Origin: Nitrospinales bacterium
Lineage (GTDB): Bacteria; Nitrospinota; Nitrospinia; Nitrospinales; VA-1
NCBI GenBank assembly: GCA_965223795.1
Contig: CBDCXL010000002.1
Location: 2,304,001-2,368,000, forward strand
Direction: 5' to 3'
Length of the DNA: 64,000 bases
Shown: piece by piece, positions 25,972-31,265 of the stretch
Numbering within the stretch: the first letter of the stretch is position 1
How the letters are laid out: the number at the start of each line of letters is the position of its first letter
Notes under the pieces: model-generated
What the model was told of the DNA's origin: nothing
Databases searched by the model: none
The model's input: the letters and a program-made list of their open reading frames with translations, nothing else
Translations under genes and position numbers: made by a program

Positions 25972-26664
25972 CTAGTTGGCCTGGACGGTCAGGTCGGGGT
26001 GAAGGGCTTCCTTGAGGAAGTTTTCGATGTAATTGAGGGTGCCGGTGGTGGAGCTGGGGCAGCTGCCGCAGGCGCCCTGATAATGGATCTTCACGACGTT
26101 GCCTTCGATGCCCAGAATGTCGAGCCCGCCGCCGTCGTTGGACAGTGCCGGCCGGATGGCCACATCCAGAAGCGCTTCGATCACCTTGGTCTTCTCCTCG
26201 TTGCTGCAGTTGGGAAAATCCTCCTTGCGGAAACCTTCCAGAACCGGTTCGAGGTTTGCGGACGCCTCTTTGGGCTCATCGCCGCTTTCGTAAAACGTGA
26301 GGTGTTTTTCTATGGCCGCGCCGATGTTCTCGGTCACCGTGTGCCAGCCGACCACACCGGATTTGGTGACGGTGACGAAATTTTCCTTCACGAACACATT
26401 CTCGATGCCAAAGATGGCGAACAGGGACTCCGCCAGCACATCGCCTTTGGCTTCCCCGGCGTTGTTGAAGGAGCGGGTGCCGGCGGCGATCACCGGACCG
26501 TTGAGGATGAACTGAAACGCATCGGGGTTCGGCGTGGGCTGGATGCGGACGACTTTGAACGTGCCTTTGCCCTCGGCGGAGCCACCATCAGGCGCTGCCG
26601 TCTGGCTTTCCTCAGCGGCGGGTTTGCCGAACCATTTGCCAAATAAATTGTCGATGAATCCCAT
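25972..26664 (-). CDS. NfuA/NifU-like Fe-S carrier (Nfu N-terminal plus NifU C-terminal domains)
   Basis: PTPNPDAFQF; IRPAL..DGG; GACGSCPSS. Confidence 0.88.
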   Translation of the reverse strand: MGFIDNLFGKWFGKPAAEESQTAAPDGGSAEGKGTFKVVRIQPTPNPDAFQFILNGPVIAAGTRSFNNAGEAKGDVLAESLFAIFGIENVFVKENFVTVTKSGVVGWHTVTENIGAAIEKHLTFYESGDEPKEASANLEPVLEGFRKEDFPNCSNEEKTKVIEALLDVAIRPALSNDGGGLDILGIEGNVVKIHYQGACGSCPSSTTGTLNYIENFLKEALHPDLTVQAN

Positions 26665-26739
26665 GGTGTTTTCCGGCGGGAAGCGCCGCCGTTCGGAACG
26701 GGAAATGCGCGAGTGCAACGATCTATTAGACCAGAATTT

Positions 26740-27270
26740 TCACCCGATCTCAAGGGATTGCAGGGTATTTGTGAAAATGGCGAGGCTTTCTGCGTCGAAC
26801 AGCACGAACCGCACCGACTTCAGTCCGGTGTCGCCGGACAGGTGTTGGACCGCCGCCTCAAGCAGGATGCGCGCCGCCGGCTCGAGGGGAAAGCCGAAAA
26901 TGCCTGTGGACAGGGCCGGAAGGGCGATCGAGCGCAGCCCCTTTTCGTCGGCCCGTTTGAGGCTGTGGAGGCAGGCGCTTTTGAGTTTGGCGTCCTCGCC
27001 GCCTTCGCCCCATTTGGGGCCGACGGCGTGGATCACGAATTTCGCACGCAGGTTTCCACCTGTGGTGACCACCGCTTCGCCGACGGGACAGGAACCCAGG
27101 GCGCTGCATTCCTGCTGGATGGCCGGGCCGCCTTTTCTGGCGATGGCGCCGGCGACGCCGCCGCCCAGGATCAGCCGGGAATTGGCCGCGTTGACGATGG
27201 CGTCGGCGTCGTTTTCGGTGATGTCCCCCTGCAAAAGCTCGATTTCCGAATCATTCACCTGGACTTTCAT
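26740..27270 (-). CDS. Macro domain protein (YmdB-like)
   Basis: GDIT, DAIVNAAN, GGGVAGAI, IHAVGP, STGIFGFP. Confidence 0.93.
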   Translation of the reverse strand: MKVQVNDSEIELLQGDITENDADAIVNAANSRLILGGGVAGAIARKGGPAIQQECSALGSCPVGEAVVTTGGNLRAKFVIHAVGPKWGEGGEDAKLKSACLHSLKRADEKGLRSIALPALSTGIFGFPLEPAARILLEAAVQHLSGDTGLKSVRFVLFDAESLAIFTNTLQSLEIG

Positions 27271-27698
27271 TTTCCTGTCGAGCCGAATCCGTTGTCTCCC
27301 CGGCCGGAGTCTTCCAGCGAGTCCACCTTCACGAACTGGACGCGTTCGACCTTCTGCACCAGCAACTGGGCGATCTTGTCGCCCGGCTGGACGCAGTGAT
27401 CGGTGTCCGTGTGGTTGAACAGCAGCACTTTCACCTCGCCGCGGTAGCCCGCATCGATGACGCCGGCGCCGCAGTCGAGCCCCTGTTTCACCGCAAGTCC
27501 GCTGCGCGGCCAGATGAGCCCGACGCAGCCGGGGGGCAGGCTGAGACGGATTCCGGTGCCGACCAGTTTGCGGCCGCGCGCCGGTATCCGTGCTTCTTCG
27601 GAAGAATGCAGGTCCGCGCCGGCGTCGCCGGGATGGGCGTACTGCGGCAGCCGGTCGCCCGTGACATCGCAGCGCGGCCGGTTTGTTTGGGTGAGCAT
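27267..27698 (-). CDS. dut: dUTP diphosphatase
   Basis: AGADL, PRSGLA, GVIDAGYRGE, IAQL, RGDNGFGSTG. Confidence 0.95.
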   Translation of the reverse strand: MLTQTNRPRCDVTGDRLPQYAHPGDAGADLHSSEEARIPARGRKLVGTGIRLSLPPGCVGLIWPRSGLAVKQGLDCGAGVIDAGYRGEVKVLLFNHTDTDHCVQPGDKIAQLLVQKVERVQFVKVDSLEDSGRGDNGFGSTGK

Positions 27699-27730
27699 GG
27701 ATTTCCCCCGGTTCGGTTTATCAGACATTC

Positions 27731-27759
27731 ACTATAATGCAGGGACCCACGCGGAGCAA
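27731..27759 (-). promoter_or_regulatory. Putative sigma70 promoter of dut
   Basis: TTGCTC-N17-TATAGT on the minus strand. Confidence 0.45.
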
Positions 27760-27846
27760 GGCCGCGGGAGTTGCTGTGGCAATGGCGGGGAACGCGGGGA
27801 AATGCGTGAAGCGGGGATAATATGCGGTATTGGGATTGATATGAAA

Positions 27847-28278
27847 AATGCCTCGCCCGTTGCCGATCCAAAGAAAATTCAAAAAGCGGCTGGTTGAAGC
27901 GCACCCGTCCTTGACATGGGAATGGGATTGAAACCGGAAAACCTGGACACGGACGGGCGAGGCATTGAAAAGCAAGAAAGGAGGCGGGTTGCTATTTTGA
28001 CAAGCGAAACGGCGTGAGTTTCGCTGTGCCACGAAAAGGAGGTTCCATCATCTTTGTACGCCACTTGGAAGGAATTCTGTTGCCGATACAAATGCAGGTT
28101 TCGGCTGGCGCTCGTTGCATATGGGGGTATGGGAAGGGGTTTGAGACTGGCGTACATCCCGTTCGCTATCATCCTTTTCTCGAAAGAATTCCGGGGATGT
28201 GTCTCGTTCAAGATGGATTCCTCTCTTTCAACAGCAACCCGCCAGTGGAAGTTCTTATCCGCAGAAAGCGGCGGGTTG
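27847..28278 (-). ncRNA. Candidate large structured non-coding RNA or leader
   Basis: Perfect 14-bp (27847-27860/27953-27966) and 11-bp (27983-27993/28233-28243) long-range inverted repeats plus several 8-9 bp stems. Lies downstream of an NrdR-boxed promoter. Confidence 0.45.
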
Positions 28279-28354
28279 ATCGTGAATGGTGCCGATAAAA
28301 ATTATTAATATGCCGATAAAACCTAGATTTTGTAACCGATTAGGGCCGTCCAGC

Positions 28355-28409
28355 ACCCCCTATCTAGTGTGGCCAGAGAACGGTAGCACTACATATAGTG
28401 GCCTGTCAA
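28355..28409 (-). promoter_or_regulatory. Sigma70 promoter overlapped by tandem NrdR boxes
   Basis: Boxes ACCCCCTATCTAGTGT (28355) and GCACTACATATAGTGG (28386), starts 31 bp apart. Minus-strand TTGACA (28404-28409)-N18-TACCGT (28380-28385). Confidence 0.75.
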
Positions 28410-28510
28410 GGGCTAAAAATTAAAATTTCTTCATTTTCAGGATATTGGCAATGATATCAATATGTTATATGGAGGAACTTTTTCCGGAGATCCGATTTTT
28501 TTGCCACCGG

Positions 28511-28557
28511 ATACTACATAATGTGTCCTCATACTTCGCATAATCTACATATTGTGG
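28511..28557. promoter_or_regulatory. Second tandem pair of NrdR-like boxes
   Basis: ATACTACATAATGTGT (28511) and AATCTACATATTGTGG (28542), again 31 bp apart. Confidence 0.6.
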
Positions 28558-28715
28558 GGTGTCGCTTTCCCGCGGGCGTGCCGTTTTCCGGAATATCGGA
28601 GGGAGCGCTTTTATTTCAAGGAGCTGCAAAATAAAAAACCAGCGATTTCCTCATTTTACGGGGCGGACGCCGAGGCTTTCCATTAACCATTTGTTATTAA
28701 ACAGCTTATTTTTCC

Positions 28716-28724
28716 TGTGGATAA
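28716..28724 (-). promoter_or_regulatory. Consensus DnaA box
   Basis: TGTGGATAA is the reverse complement of TTATCCACA. Confidence 0.45.
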
Positions 28725-28963
28725 AATTGTGAGTTTCGGGCTTTCACGCCCTGTTTTGCCGGCCGCCCTTCACCCCACGGAATCGGATTATTCGTTCCGA
28801 AAAGCACTCTGTGGCCGCCTGATCCCCGGTTGCAGGAAAAATGTGACCTGGCTCCGGTTTCGGTTTTTTCCCTTCATTTCTCCGGCAGGGTTTTTCGGTT
28901 TATCCCGCCGGTCGATCGGGATGGCTGCACAGTTCTCTGAAACACATCGGATTTTATGTGGTT

Positions 28964-29325
28964 TCAGTTGAGCCGGGTGCGGATGCTCTGCGTGTCGACA
29001 CGGCTGTAATGGCCGTTGGGCTCGCATTTCGCGAGAGAAAAACAGTCCTCGGTGCCCAGATCGCACAGAAACTCCACCGCGAGCGCCTGACTCTGGCATT
29101 CGGGGCAGCCCTTTCCGGTGAGGTGCGCTTTCACCTTGCCGAGCAGGCCTTCCTGCGTTTTGCGGTCCTGGGTGACGATGAACTTGTAATGGCAGTGCCC
29201 GCACGCGGCCTGGGTGTCGCAGAGACCGCGGCAGCTCGCAGCTCAGTGACTTCAAACCGGGTGTTGAGGCAGACGGGACAGGGGATTGTTTGAATCAGGG
29301 TTTCCACCACTTCCAGTGTGCTCAT
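28964..29325 (-). pseudogene. Cys-rich double zinc-ribbon protein, about 121 aa, with two frameshifts near 29230-29250
   Basis: AAGGAG RBS; MSTLEVV..CPVC..FEV in frame 1, LSCEL in frame 2, RGLCDTQAACGHC...CPEC...LCDL...C..AKC..GH...RLN* in frame 3. Confidence 0.7.
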
Positions 29326-29501
29326 GATCCACGCTCCTTGCATGCGCCGTGAACGTTCATCAACGCCCGTTGCAAAGTCGGAACGGGGCGGGTTTCCTTT
29401 CGCCCAAGCCTGCGGGGCGGATGCCGGAGGTGGTTGTGAAGCCTGTATTTAAAGGGCTTTGAGGAAAAAAGGGGAGGCGGGCCTGTGGCGCGGACCGGGA
29501 T

Positions 29502-31265
29502 TCAACCGCTTTTGAATTTTTCCAGGTCTTTGGGGATCTCGTCGAGAAAGCGGTCCTTGATGGTGAACAGGCCCGGCTTGCCACTGACGCGGGCGTAGCG
29601 GCGTTTTTCGTCGTTTTCGGTGGGATTGCCGACGCTCACGCGCCCGGCAAGATTTTCATTTCCTTTCCAGATGGATACCGTGACGCTGGGTTTGTCGAGG
29701 CCGGACTGTTTGTCGGTGAGCGGCTCCTCGACGATGGATTCGAATTCCAGGTTGGTCAGGGTCCAGAGAATGTCTTTGCCGAGAAATTCGGGCACCGCGT
29801 CGATCGTTTCCGGCTTTTTCAGCGCCCATTCCTTGCCCTTTGCCTTGAGTTCGAAAGTCCGGTCCGGATAGGCGATGGCGATGCGGTCGATGTCCTTTTT
29901 GTCAAATTGCAAAAGCTTTTTGAAGCGCAGATCGTGCAGCGAACGGAACAGTTTTTTAACCGTGTCCTTGCCCAGAGTGAACACGGTGCCGTCCTCGGAG
30001 CGGGTGGCGTAGACGTTTTCCCGGTTGATCGAGTCATTGCCCAGTTTCATCGTCCAGGGATTTTTGTTCCTGCGGTGGACGGTCAGGATTTTGGGTGGGA
30101 AATCGAGCCCGAACAGGGCGGGGCTTTTGTCCACGGTCTTGATGAATTCGCTGATCCGCGCCTGCTTCAGATCGATCAGCACGCTTTTCACGGCGGCGGG
30201 ATCGACGCGCAGGGATTGGGGCTCGGTGATTTTCCAGTCCTTCGCGCCGCTGCGCGCCAGCCGGATGGTTTCCTGGCCGTTCTGGATGTCGAGCTGAGTG
30301 ACGTTTTCCTCCTTAAACTCAAGCAGAGAGCGGTCCATGAACTCGTCGAACTGCCTGGACAGGATTTTGAACATCTGATTGCCCAGAAGGACGACGTTGG
30401 GAGCGCTCTCGACCTTGCCGAAATAGCCCGACGTGTCGCGCTTTTCTCCGGCCAGCAGTGTGAGGGGCTTTCCGGATTTTTTGGAATGCAGTTTTAGCGT
30501 CGCGGCCGGCGCGTTGAGGCCGAATGGGGCGAGCGATTTGGGCGCTTCTTCCACGAACTCCTTGACGCGGGCGTTTTCCAGGGTGTGCAGGAAGTTGTCG
30601 ATCTCGATGGTGTCGCCGCGGGATTTTAGATCCTTGTGCGACACTGTCCAGCGTTCGCCTTTTTTGACCAGGGTGAAATCGTTGTCCGCATTTTTCAGGC
30701 GCACGGTATCGATGTCCCTGGCGTCGAATTTCAACAGGGACTTGTCCCGGAGAGCGAACACCGACTGTTCGAAATCCTCCCGGGCGTCGGCGGCCAGCAG
30801 CACGCGCGTTTCCCCGCCGCGCTGGACGTAGACTTTCTGGTTGAGGGGATTGACATCGCCGATGGCGAGCGTGTGCTCCTTGCCGTCTTTCAGCTTGAGC
30901 CGGACCGTGAGTCCGGGATCCTTCAGGCCGTAGGAAGCGGGGTCTTCGGGGACCTCCTCGACCACGCGGGTGAAGCGGGCGCCGCTGAGTTTCGCCGCGA
31001 AGGCGTTGGCGTTTTCGTTGTCGGCCGCGGCCTTGAGGGGTTCGATCAACTGCCAGGTGTCCGCGTTTTTGCGTTTGAGACGCAGGTTCTGCGCGGCGGA
31101 CTGCAGGGCGAATTCGCTGATATCCGCGGCGTCGAACTGAAAAAGCTGTTCCGATCGCGCTTCCTCGCTTTTTTTCCTTTCCTGGGAAGGCAGCTCGACG
31201 CCGTAATAATAGGCGATGAGCGCGATCAGCGCCACGACCAGCCACAGGGTTCCTTTAAACCTCAT
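29502..31265 (-). CDS. DUF4340-like domain protein (three repeats) of a Gld-type ABC operon
   Basis: N-terminal TM anchor, repeated W.L.EP and (Y/F/S)GL..P motifs. Last gene of the ABC operon. Confidence 0.8.
   Translation of the reverse strand: MRFKGTLWLVVALIALIAYYYGVELPSQERKKSEEARSEQLFQFDAADISEFALQSAAQNLRLKRKNADTWQLIEPLKAAADNENANAFAAKLSGARFTRVVEEVPEDPASYGLKDPGLTVRLKLKDGKEHTLAIGDVNPLNQKVYVQRGGETRVLLAADAREDFEQSVFALRDKSLLKFDARDIDTVRLKNADNDFTLVKKGERWTVSHKDLKSRGDTIEIDNFLHTLENARVKEFVEEAPKSLAPFGLNAPAATLKLHSKKSGKPLTLLAGEKRDTSGYFGKVESAPNVVLLGNQMFKILSRQFDEFMDRSLLEFKEENVTQLDIQNGQETIRLARSGAKDWKITEPQSLRVDPAAVKSVLIDLKQARISEFIKTVDKSPALFGLDFPPKILTVHRRNKNPWTMKLGNDSINRENVYATRSEDGTVFTLGKDTVKKLFRSLHDLRFKKLLQFDKKDIDRIAIAYPDRTFELKAKGKEWALKKPETIDAVPEFLGKDILWTLTNLEFESIVEEPLTDKQSGLDKPSVTVSIWKGNENLAGRVSVGNPTENDEKRRYARVSGKPGLFTIKDRFLDEIPKDLEKFKSG

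Follow-up and report, generated by a model that had tools for sequence, protein, structure and literature searches.

A conserved structured RNA upstream of dut in Nitrospinales, a candidate for RNA-level control of DNA building blocks

Promoters of the NrdR regulon carry tandem NrdR boxes in front of ribonucleotide reductase genes, and, as far as a literature search shows, this regulon is known as a set of protein genes. Ribosome-dependent attenuators comprise the trp-type leader peptides and the E. coli leaders of pyrBI and pyrE, in which a close ribosome prevents the terminator. Among regulatory RNAs, RsaE/RoxS of Firmicutes and 6C RNA of Actinobacteria have exposed C-rich motifs with which they cover ribosome-binding sites rich in G. 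The enzyme dUTPase, the product of dut, keeps uracil out of DNA. Here we describe a folded RNA, previously uncatalogued and specific to Nitrospinales, that usually lies in front of dut, which makes it a promising candidate for a so far undescribed control of DNA building blocks at the RNA level.

The window, by which we mean the whole 64,000-nt stretch of DNA analysed, comes from a Nitrospinales bacterium (assembly GCA_965223795.1, contig CBDCXL010000002.1). In a part of it a sequence-only reading had proposed a novel structured RNA, an interpretation now supported by stems that are conserved and covary in relatives. Performing a literature search, we found no publication on this RNA, which is weak evidence because most subscription journals lay outside the reach of the search. 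The same search found nothing on regulatory RNAs in Nitrospina, the marine nitrite oxidisers that belong to the element's order, going by the names on related records.

Conservation and fold of the RNA

Every repeat named by the sequence-only reading is present in the window (Table 1). Folding the region 27840-28290 and comparing it with 100 dinucleotide shuffles, we obtained z = -3.95 for the minus strand and z = -2.69 for the plus strand. Both strands fold better than dinucleotide-shuffled sequence, since 0/100 shuffles were as good in either case. The repeats are not due to chance; on the minus strand they belong to an RNA that is structured, conserved and present as a single copy.

Table 1. 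Positions, within the window, of the features discussed in the text
Feature	Position	Strand	Remarks
-35 hexamer TTGACA	28404..28409	-	read from sequence; putative promoter function
NrdR-type box 1	28386..28401	-	in the -35/-10 spacer; conserved in alignments
-10 hexamer TACCGT	28380..28385	-	TAYnnT in relatives; assigned by position and conservation
NrdR-type box 2	28357..28372	-	at or just past the probable start; conserved
5′ leader	28244..28356	-	poorly conserved; contains CAACCCGCC (28278-28270), potential competitor for the P1 5′ strand
Structured RNA region	27847..28278	-	region examined
Domain 1	27983..28243	-	261 nt; multi-helix fold P1-P5; consensus of 55 sequences
P1	28243-28232 with 27994-27983	-	closing helix
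P2	28229-28213 with 28048-28033	-	long helix
P3	28205-28143	-	hairpin; variable region
J3/4	28142-28112	-	invariant C-rich junction
P4	28111-28058	-	three-way
P5	28025-28003	-	hairpin
Tail CCUCCUUUCUU	27974..27984	-	conserved, pyrimidine; just 3′ of P1 (alignment columns 291-301)
ORF	27879..28211	-	110 codons from TTG; spans domain 1 into domain 2
Domain 2	27847..27966	-	long stem A around conserved AUGUCAAGGACGGG (27917-27904)
Stem A	27966-27953 with 27860-27847	-	repeat I1
U5 run	27844..27848	-	directly 3′ of stem A; terminator-like 3′ end or attenuator
Putative proximal dut promoter	27731..27759	-	-35 TTGCTC 27759-27754, 17 nt, -10 TATAGT 27736-27731
dut	27267..27698	-	dUTPase; 143 codons from ATG 27698; Pfam dUTPase E 2.9e-35
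I1	27847-27860 / 27953-27966		14 nt, 100% complementary; stem A
I2	28227-28243 / 28270-28286		competing partner
I3	27983-27996 / 28230-28243		14 nt, 93%; perfect 11-mer inside; P1
I4	27803-27790 / 27714-27701	-	AUUUCCCCGCGUUC / GAACCGGGGGAAAU (dut ribosome-binding region); 86% complementary; potential pairing
I8	27904-27913 / 27948-27957		competing partner
I9	28055 / 28148		nested pair
I11	28003-28025		hairpin; P5
I12	28033 / 28172		nested pair
I13	28071 / 28185		proposed pseudoknot

The RNA is built of two domains. The consensus fold of domain 1 has 59 pairs, and 91.4% of its cells are paired, compared to 38-49% in slid controls; 32 of these pairs change on both sides, and 0/500 shuffled controls matched the observed values. 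Domain 1 therefore has the conserved, covariation-backed, aptamer-like fold that is looked for in a riboswitch. Counting 354 G-U cells against 91 A-C cells in the strand test, we conclude that the minus strand is the RNA strand. Two plus-strand frames (28014-28298 and 28054-28308) were rejected as genes, as they match no Pfam family and are equally conserved in all three frames; the G-U test also disfavours a plus-strand reading. The best-conserved part of the whole element is the unpaired C-rich strand, and the tail just 3′ of P1 carries a sequence that we take to resemble the anti-Shine-Dalgarno end of 16S rRNA. In domain 2, the helix of stem A is uninterrupted, measures 9-23 bp and keeps its position in all of 62 loci; it covaries, as these loci show 47 distinct arm pairs.

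Comparison with relatives bears out some of the pairings that had been proposed from the window alone. The 14-bp repeat (stem A) is conserved and covarying, and the 11-bp repeat (P1) is conserved. Of the pairs said to be nested inside P1, the hairpin P5 covaries, but I9 and I12 are not conserved and fall outside the consensus fold. The pseudoknot I13 also lies outside it and is not conserved; the 3′ partners of I9, I12 and I13 pair instead within P4, P2 and P4b. As for the competing partners suggested for the two main stems, I8 recurs as a conserved motif, in which AUGUCAAGGACGGG can alternatively pair with the stem A 5′ arm, whereas I2 is missing in all five other loci compared, even in a relative of the same genus.

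Surveying 120 Nitrospinota genomes with a covariance model of the 94-position core, we found the RNA in 90, with one match per genome; the window's own genome likewise has a single copy. The matches fall in all four families of a single order (60/69 genomes in f1, 19/21 in f2, 5/6 in f3 and 5/5 in f4), and 0/18 genomes of the other Nitrospinota families have the element. It is therefore confined to one order, with the proviso that such a model may overlook highly diverged relatives from beyond that order. P1, P2, P4 and P4a persist in the other families that carry the RNA and in 37 new metagenome sequences.

The region matches no family of Rfam 15 (4227 models) at the gathering threshold. A permissive search of 26500-30000, accepting E values up to 1, returned two chance matches that stay below threshold and lie outside the element, and over the whole window only a tRNA reaches the gathering score. 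These searches agree with the earlier remark that the sequence was not recognisable as tmRNA, RNase P, SRP or a known riboswitch. Identity with RNase P, 6S, tmRNA or SRP RNA is excluded, because the genome carries all four elsewhere above cut-off (318.8, 100, 209.7 and 74.3 bits, respectively).

Promoter, 3′ end and linkage to dut

Upstream of the RNA lie a TTGACA hexamer, a candidate -10 hexamer and two palindrome-like boxes of 16 nt each, about 31 bp apart, that overlap the -35/-10 spacer and the start. We call the boxes NrdR-type because of their likeness to the NrdR consensus. The pattern of TTGAC plus both boxes fits 184/240 loci, including 54/55 non-redundant element loci, and 59/60 metagenome copies; judged by this pattern, NrdR-type boxes precede essentially every copy of the RNA. 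The window's genome has an nrdR gene, and reading its ribonucleotide reductase gene we found the same two-box layout in front of it. These observations uphold the earlier proposal of an NrdR-controlled promoter, with binding of NrdR as a prediction. In a PWM scan of the genome, the RNA promoter was the only tandem box pair, a result that holds at the PWM threshold alone, since the poorly registered matrix missed the reductase promoter. A simple promoter/terminator scan of the window flagged neither proposed promoter, nor any short-loop terminator. From the hexamers, the RNA would start at about 28373.

At the 3′ end, the window does contain the U-run that had been noted beyond the final minus-strand stem. 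Among relatives, two layouts occur. A U-rich tail follows stem A in 29/71 loci, and a second hairpin with a U-run follows in 26/71, the 5′ arm of this hairpin overlapping the stem A 3′ arm; a U-run or terminator thus lies 3′ of domain 2 in 55/71 loci in all. The two layouts would imply opposite logic, as stem A has its own U-run in one and competes with a separate terminator in the other. Domain 2 is not universal, its motif being absent from 9/71 loci. The covarying stem A, together with the U-tail and second-hairpin layouts, would supply the parts of a switch.

The gene dut, whose start codon we picked by alignment to relatives, lies downstream on the same strand in 53/55 non-redundant genome copies, the remaining two contigs ending too early, and in 57/57 assessable metagenome copies. 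The linker between the RNA and dut measures 112-400 nt. Our leading explanation, to which we give roughly an even chance, is that the RNA belongs to the NrdR regulon and in most genera serves dut as a long 5′ leader or attenuator whose pairings can switch. Transcription would start from the promoter with the two NrdR-type boxes, and the position of these boxes in the spacer and start region suggests that the RNA is made upon NrdR release, i.e. when deoxynucleotides are wanted. Domain 1 would fold first, P1 closing it around the long P2 and a junction with P3, the invariant C-rich strand and the P4 three-way. Domain 2 would fold next, as a long stem and then the U-run. G-rich and C-rich segments are common to P1, both stem A arms and the internal GGACGG motif, and would make the pairings mutually exclusive. 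The state of domain 1 would then decide whether transcription halts past domain 2, where the U-run or terminator lies, or continues into dut; a bound metabolite, or ribosomes on the open frame described below, could set that state.

Alternatively, the element may be an NrdR-regulon gene for a non-coding RNA that stands alone, with its end at the U-run or terminator past domain 2 and its action elsewhere than on dut; the adjacency of dut would then reflect a mere shared neighbourhood or read-through. For example, the exposed C-rich strand and the CCUCC tail might base-pair to other mRNAs at their G-rich ribosome-binding regions, or the RNA might bind a protein. This is possible but rather doubtful. 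It draws on the U-run or terminator after domain 2, on the single copy per genome throughout one order, on the unpaired strand being the best-conserved part and on one genus (g16, 4 species). In g16 the RNA, with domain 1 and its promoter, is retained although the next gene is convergent, so that no same-strand gene lies downstream; dut is located elsewhere, behind another gene and without the RNA upstream. The g16 element outlasts its flanks: 208/213 positions are identical between two species against 88/121 in the downstream flank, and taken across species the element is identical at 208/213 and 213/213 positions while the flanks reach 73-91%. Conservation of the RNA without dut means that it has a dut-independent use.

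A separate dut promoter would fit the stand-alone gene as well. TATAAT or TATAGT occurs at most 100 nt from dut in 35/63 distinct loci, including many f1 genera, and a -10-like hexamer plus a TTG -35 precedes dut in 19/63; given these hexamers in the linker, expression of dut may be independent of read-through. On the other side, dut is next on the same strand at every assessable locus outside g16, and in f2 it begins about 15-25 nt past stem A, which leaves little space for a promoter of its own. In addition, a genome search for trans targets at 19 or more of 22 complementary bases matched the element alone. The only signal from an RNA library is one 151-nt metatranscriptome contig over 28027-28165 (depth 3.2, assembled contigs). 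Three runs of unstated kind cover the whole stretch evenly and are uninformative on starts, ends and strand.

The open frame through the RNA

A long open reading frame threads domain 1. It is stop-free across the whole element in 40/55 sequences, compared to 2/55 and 0/55 for the other frames, and is open in 32/37 new metagenome sequences, counts that overstate the case because related sequences are not independent. The length of the variable P3 region is divisible by three in 51/55 sequences and in 10/14 distinct lengths. Some 14-15 of 19 genera retain it, at 70-170 codons, and its translation of the invariant junction reads K-P-L-P-K-P-P-N. It crosses the stem A 5′ arm in most f1 genera and in the f2 genera g13, g18 and g20. 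In g11 it stops right after this arm and the terminator overlaps the 3′ arm; other genera differ. In g20 and g15 the frame stops 5-11 nt ahead of the projected dut start.

The leader explanation therefore has a sub-case, not a separate object, in which translation is the sensor: in such a ribosome-dependent attenuator, the progress of the ribosome or its closeness to the polymerase would choose between stem A and the terminator. Consistent with this idea are the three-base pattern of P3 and, for the frame, its openness, its reach into stem A and its ends close to dut. The P2 5′ strand is also Shine-Dalgarno-like, and the P2 3′ strand, CCUCUUUUU, would mask it. However, the frame is missing or shortened in five genera (g3, g9, g17, g16 and g14), all of which retain the RNA, and its stop falls anywhere between -105 and +307 relative to P1. 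Plausible starts exist, but the start codon is not fixed. Regulatory codons are not evident in the frame. On balance we consider translation unlikely to be the sensor.

The frame, its three-base length pattern, an ATG about 45 nt upstream of P1 in several genera and the g20 and g15 ends, which resemble those of coupled genes, might instead mark a normal gene for a small protein of about 80-160 residues that shares an operon with dut, with the RNA structure incidental; this we regard as very improbable, because five genera lose the frame and retain the RNA, and because the frame does not change as protein genes do. Codon-position entropies of 0.68, 0.56 and 0.58 show no excess change at third positions, and the synonymous share of changes is 29% in this frame, the other two giving 36% and 18%. 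For the same genome pairs, pN/pS is 0.63-1.10 for the frame and 0.24-0.39 for dut, with synonymous change far below that in dut. The frame in which one and the same set of invariant nucleotides is read differs between genera. Searching 5.8 billion protein clusters with the minus-strand frame returned one candidate and no scored match, and Pfam found nothing significant on the ORF. The earlier judgement that the region holds no convincing protein gene stands, as a protein-like substitution pattern is lacking across 27879-28211. In summary, the long frame stays open yet evolves unlike a protein.

Returning to the leader of dut, we tentatively put forward an extended version of it, although we think it improbable as a whole. 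Domain 1 might serve as aptamer in a novel class of large riboswitches that respond to the status of the deoxynucleotide pool (with dUTP, dUMP, dTTP or a related metabolite as possible ligand), which would place an RNA layer atop the protein control of dUTPase by NrdR. The same RNA would be free-standing and trans-acting in at least one genus, and the open frame would couple the decision to translation.

Comparison with known systems

A conserved structured RNA in the NrdR regulon would be a new kind of component, and the suggested RNA-level control of dUTPase a new control point. RNAs of such a profile have earlier rewarded biochemical study, and this one is a good object for it, being large, with a complex junction and invariant unpaired nucleotides, and present once per genome across an order. 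The frame that is maintained without protein-like evolution poses a testable puzzle on the coupling of translation and RNA folding.

Like the promoters of the NrdR regulon, the promoter of this RNA has two 16-nt boxes about 31 bp apart over the spacer and start; unlike them, it precedes a non-coding structured RNA, for which our literature search found no named precedent. With RsaE/RoxS and 6C RNA the element shares a CCUCC tail as well as C-runs (CCCCUUCCCAAACCCCC) that are conserved and stay unpaired. Unlike those RNAs, it is several times larger, has a complex junction fold and bears no sequence relationship to them, and the long-complementarity search (at least 19/22) found no targets for it.

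The likeness to ribosome-dependent attenuators lies in a frame that runs into a terminator/antiterminator arm, in U-rich tracts and in a nucleotide-metabolism gene downstream. The differences are that those leaders span 14-44 codons whereas the frame here has 70-170, that it lies within a conserved covarying fold, that it is without evident regulatory codons and that several genera lack it. In Sinorhizobium meliloti, the attenuator-derived small RNA rnTrpL is reported to have an embedded short frame, to be released by termination and to act in trans (PMC6614838). It is of a different family, much smaller and tied to tryptophan, and trans action of our RNA is hypothetical; a dual role of the rnTrpL kind would nevertheless reconcile the dut-linked and the orphan copies.

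Riboswitches and other structured leaders with terminator-antiterminator platforms differ from the RNA described here in that it has no Rfam match, a linker of 112-400 nt and a second structured domain, in that one genus keeps it without the gene, and in the ORF that threads the candidate aptamer. In common with them, it has a P1-closed multi-helix fold with invariant junction nucleotides and sits 5′ of a metabolic gene, a U-run or terminator coming before that gene. Its P1 and downstream arms share complementary segments, so that alternative pairings are possible, as in those leaders.

A structured RNA family in one Nitrospinota order

The stretch upstream of dut, the dUTPase gene, represents a genuine and conserved family of structured RNAs that is absent from Rfam 15. 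The sequence-only reading had proposed a novel RNA, and our Rfam 15 search indeed returned no match for the element; a literature search likewise gave no report of it. The sole ARAGORN match was a distant tRNA-Lys. RNase P, 6S, tmRNA and SRP RNA were rejected as identities, since the genome carries all four elsewhere.

The inverted repeats claimed by that reading were all found, with correct coordinates, and both competing partners that it described are present as the numbered repeats I2 and I8. Its suspicion of unusual folding was borne out against dinucleotide shuffles of 27840-28290 (z = -2.69 on the plus and -3.95 on the minus strand; 0/100 shuffles folded as well on either strand).

We derived a minus-strand consensus fold from 55 non-redundant elements, drawn from 71 loci. 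Standard pairs filled 91.4% of the cells (59 pairs, 3211 cells), compared with 38-49% when the 3′ partners were slid by 1-3 columns, and none of 500 shuffles matched the observed pairing values. Changes on both sides were seen in 32 pairs (21-27 slid) and 194 cells (53-95 slid). All of these counts overstate independence because the sequences are related and the fold was taken from the same alignment. The wobble pairs settled the strand question: G-U cells numbered 354 versus 91 A-C cells, so the RNA lies on the minus strand. Read as the other strand, the paired cells dropped to 83.2%, and RNAalifold favoured the minus strand (-46 versus -29 kcal/mol). In this fold, the 11-mer repeat noticed earlier is P1, the hairpin is P5 and the 14-mer is stem A, the long stem of domain 2; the three nested pairs are all absent.

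P1, P2, P4 and P4a were maintained in 20 divergent loci from other families, and genus g16 showed, by reading, additional compensatory changes in P4 and P4a. The helices were 81-100% paired in 37 new distinct sequences from a metagenome scan, in which 63 of 80 fetched loci bore the element.

Features of the element and its surroundings (window coordinates unless a contig is named)
Feature	Position	Strand	Remarks
Macro-domain gene	26740-27270		follows dut; Pfam Macro, E 8.3e-42
dut	27267-27698	minus	Pfam dUTPase, E 2.9e-35; adjoins element on left
U5 run	27848-27844	minus	directly after stem A
ORF	27879-28211	minus	
14-mer repeat	27847-27860 / 27953-27966		perfect
11-mer repeat	inside 27983-27996 / 28230-28243		
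Hairpin	28003-28025		
Nested pairs	28055/28148, 28033/28172, 28071/28185		
P1		minus	consensus fold; closing helix, GGCGGGUUACUA / UAGUAACCCGCC
P2		minus	consensus fold; long helix
P3		minus	consensus fold; variable hairpin
J3/4		minus	consensus fold; invariant unpaired strand, AAACCCCUUCCCAAACCCCCAAAUG
P4		minus	consensus fold; three-way with P4a and P4b
P5		minus	consensus fold; variable hairpin
Box 2	28372-28357	minus	
TACCGT	28385-28380	minus	
Box 1	28401-28386	minus	16-nt, palindrome-like, in spacer
-35 TTGACA	28409-28404	minus	
Reductase promoter	G000:C2		TTGACC, box in spacer, TATAAT, second box

The window's genome holds one copy. Among 40 relatives, a DNA search recovered block 27975-28256, together with the box region 28357-28419, in 20/24 same-family genomes and three genomes of other families. 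A pattern derived from the core hit 66 stretches among 185,579 species genomes. P1 arms accompanied 51 of these, all with Nitrospin- names except three metagenome bins with other labels; the remaining 15, from Streptomyces and others, have no such arms and were discarded as chance matches. A covariance model of the core (94 positions) matched exactly once in each of 90/120 Nitrospinota genomes, spread over four families of one order (f1 60/69, f2 19/21, f3 5/6, f4 5/5), and in 0/18 genomes of five other Nitrospinota families. Among genomes at least 90% complete, 50/57 carried the element.

The expression data comprised assembled contigs only. From a marine-sediment metatranscriptome, one contig of 151 nt (depth 3.2, two differences) spans 28027-28165 in the conserved core, and three runs, kind not given, covered the whole stretch evenly. 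Such coverage hints only weakly, if at all, at transcription.

The boxed promoter and the probable 3′ end

The promoter of the element contains two boxes that we take to be putative NrdR boxes, and an nrdR gene is present in the window's genome. Its layout was visible in 75/75 loci (66 by pattern, 9 by eye). The strict pattern of -35 and two boxes fits 184/240 loci, including 54/55 non-redundant copies (the lone miss has TTCACA), 17/20 divergent loci and 59/60 metagenome loci with sufficient upstream sequence.

Another pair of NrdR-box-like 16-mers (28511-28526 and 28543-28558, 32 bp centre to centre) lies 140 nt from this promoter, below the PWM threshold used. It borders ~1 kb (28420-29500) without a recognisable protein gene, whose frames gave no Pfam match. 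Within it, 28479-29339 is 72% identical to a same-genus genome and 28994-29339 is 66-72% identical to three other genera.

Past P1 by 14-18 nt begins the 5′ arm of stem A. A contiguous 9-23 bp helix occupies this position in 62 loci, and its 47 distinct arm pairs differ so widely in sequence that the stem covaries. It encloses a conserved motif, GUCAAGGACRG (missing from nine of 71 loci), whose GGACGG can pair with the 5′ arm of stem A, as the sequence-only reading anticipated (I8). A U-rich tail directly follows stem A in 29/71 loci, window included; in 26/71, a second hairpin (CGGGAAAG...CUUUCCCG) with a U-run follows instead, its 5′ arm overlapping the 3′ arm of stem A. A further seven loci fell into the class 'other'; in at least four of them (L003, L014, L033, L141), inspection of the sequence reveals a U-run, and the helix was apparently mis-picked. 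The conserved tail past P1 is CCUCCUUUCUU (window 27974-27984 and relatives), presumably equal to the anti-Shine-Dalgarno end of 16S rRNA. Genera g11 and g8 have AAAAGGA after this tail, able to fold back on it.

dut as the downstream gene

From the dut start to the next convincing gene (stop 29502), ~1.8 kb lack a recognisable protein gene. The macro-domain gene begins 4 bases ahead of the stop of dut, and hence the two look like one operon. We found dut downstream on the same strand in 53/55 non-redundant copies, 112-400 nt past P1 (the contigs of the other two end too soon), in 16/20 divergent loci and in 57/57 assessable metagenome loci. Our preferred reading, to which we give about an even chance, is that the element is a leader or attenuator of dut within the NrdR regulon, its alternative pairings gating read-through into dut. 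In family f2, dut starts 15-25 nt past stem A, so that a separate dut promoter is hardly possible. Many f1 genera have an exact TATAAT or TATAGT between RNA and dut (35/63 distinct loci; 19/63 when a TTG -35 is also required).

For the ribosome-binding region of dut (27714-27701), a possible pairing partner is 27803-27790 (I4, 86% complementary). This partner sits upstream of the putative proximal dut promoter; thus, the mask would form only on read-through transcripts from the RNA's promoter.

A stand-alone RNA function is well supported for at least one genus, g16, and may be the primary one; we rate this less probable than the leader reading. Four g16 species retain the promoter and domain 1, while the next gene is convergent and dut lies elsewhere, directly after another gene and without the RNA. 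Between species pairs, the element is identical at 208/213 and 213/213 positions, promoter and leader at 88-91%, and the downstream flank at 73-83%. Thus, the RNA's constant companion is its boxed promoter rather than dut. One g16 genome (L149; G032:C18:20446-20841) has a second, more distant dUTPase-like match (49% identity).

The reading frame through the RNA

A minus-strand frame translates J3/4, the C-rich junction strand of domain 1, as K-P-L-P-K-P-P-N-V-L-S-A-S-R. It is stop-free across the entire element in 40/55 sequences (2/55 and 0/55 for the other frames), and in most sequences is the sole open frame in each half. The length of the variable P3 region is divisible by three in 51/55 sequences, and the frame is retained in ~14-15 of 19 genera. 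Its stop falls between -105 and +307 with respect to P1, and in g20 and g15 it lies 5-11 nt ahead of the projected dut start.

Despite this openness, an ordinary protein gene is very improbable, because the substitution pattern of the frame is the RNA's, not a protein's. The sequence-only reading had set a protein-like pattern across the ORF as grounds for giving up the RNA; we found an RNA-like one (entropy 0.68/0.56/0.58, no third-position excess). Of the changes, 29% were synonymous, versus 36% and 18% for the other frames. The frame had a pN/pS of 0.63-1.10 versus 0.24-0.39 for dut, both taken from the same genome pairs, and far less synonymous change than dut. Genera differ in the frame in which they read the invariant 3′ strands of P4 and P1, five genera retaining the RNA have lost the frame, and a predicted-protein search with it gave no similar protein.

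Persistence without protein-like change suggests that what counts may be the passage of ribosomes and not the peptide. A dut leader could respond to a metabolite or, alternatively, to translation of this embedded frame. Outside the window but in the same genome (G000:C2, ~941,500-941,930), the promoter of the ribonucleotide reductase gene (1201 residues) shares the design of the element's promoter, and the leader of that gene is ~230 nt long.
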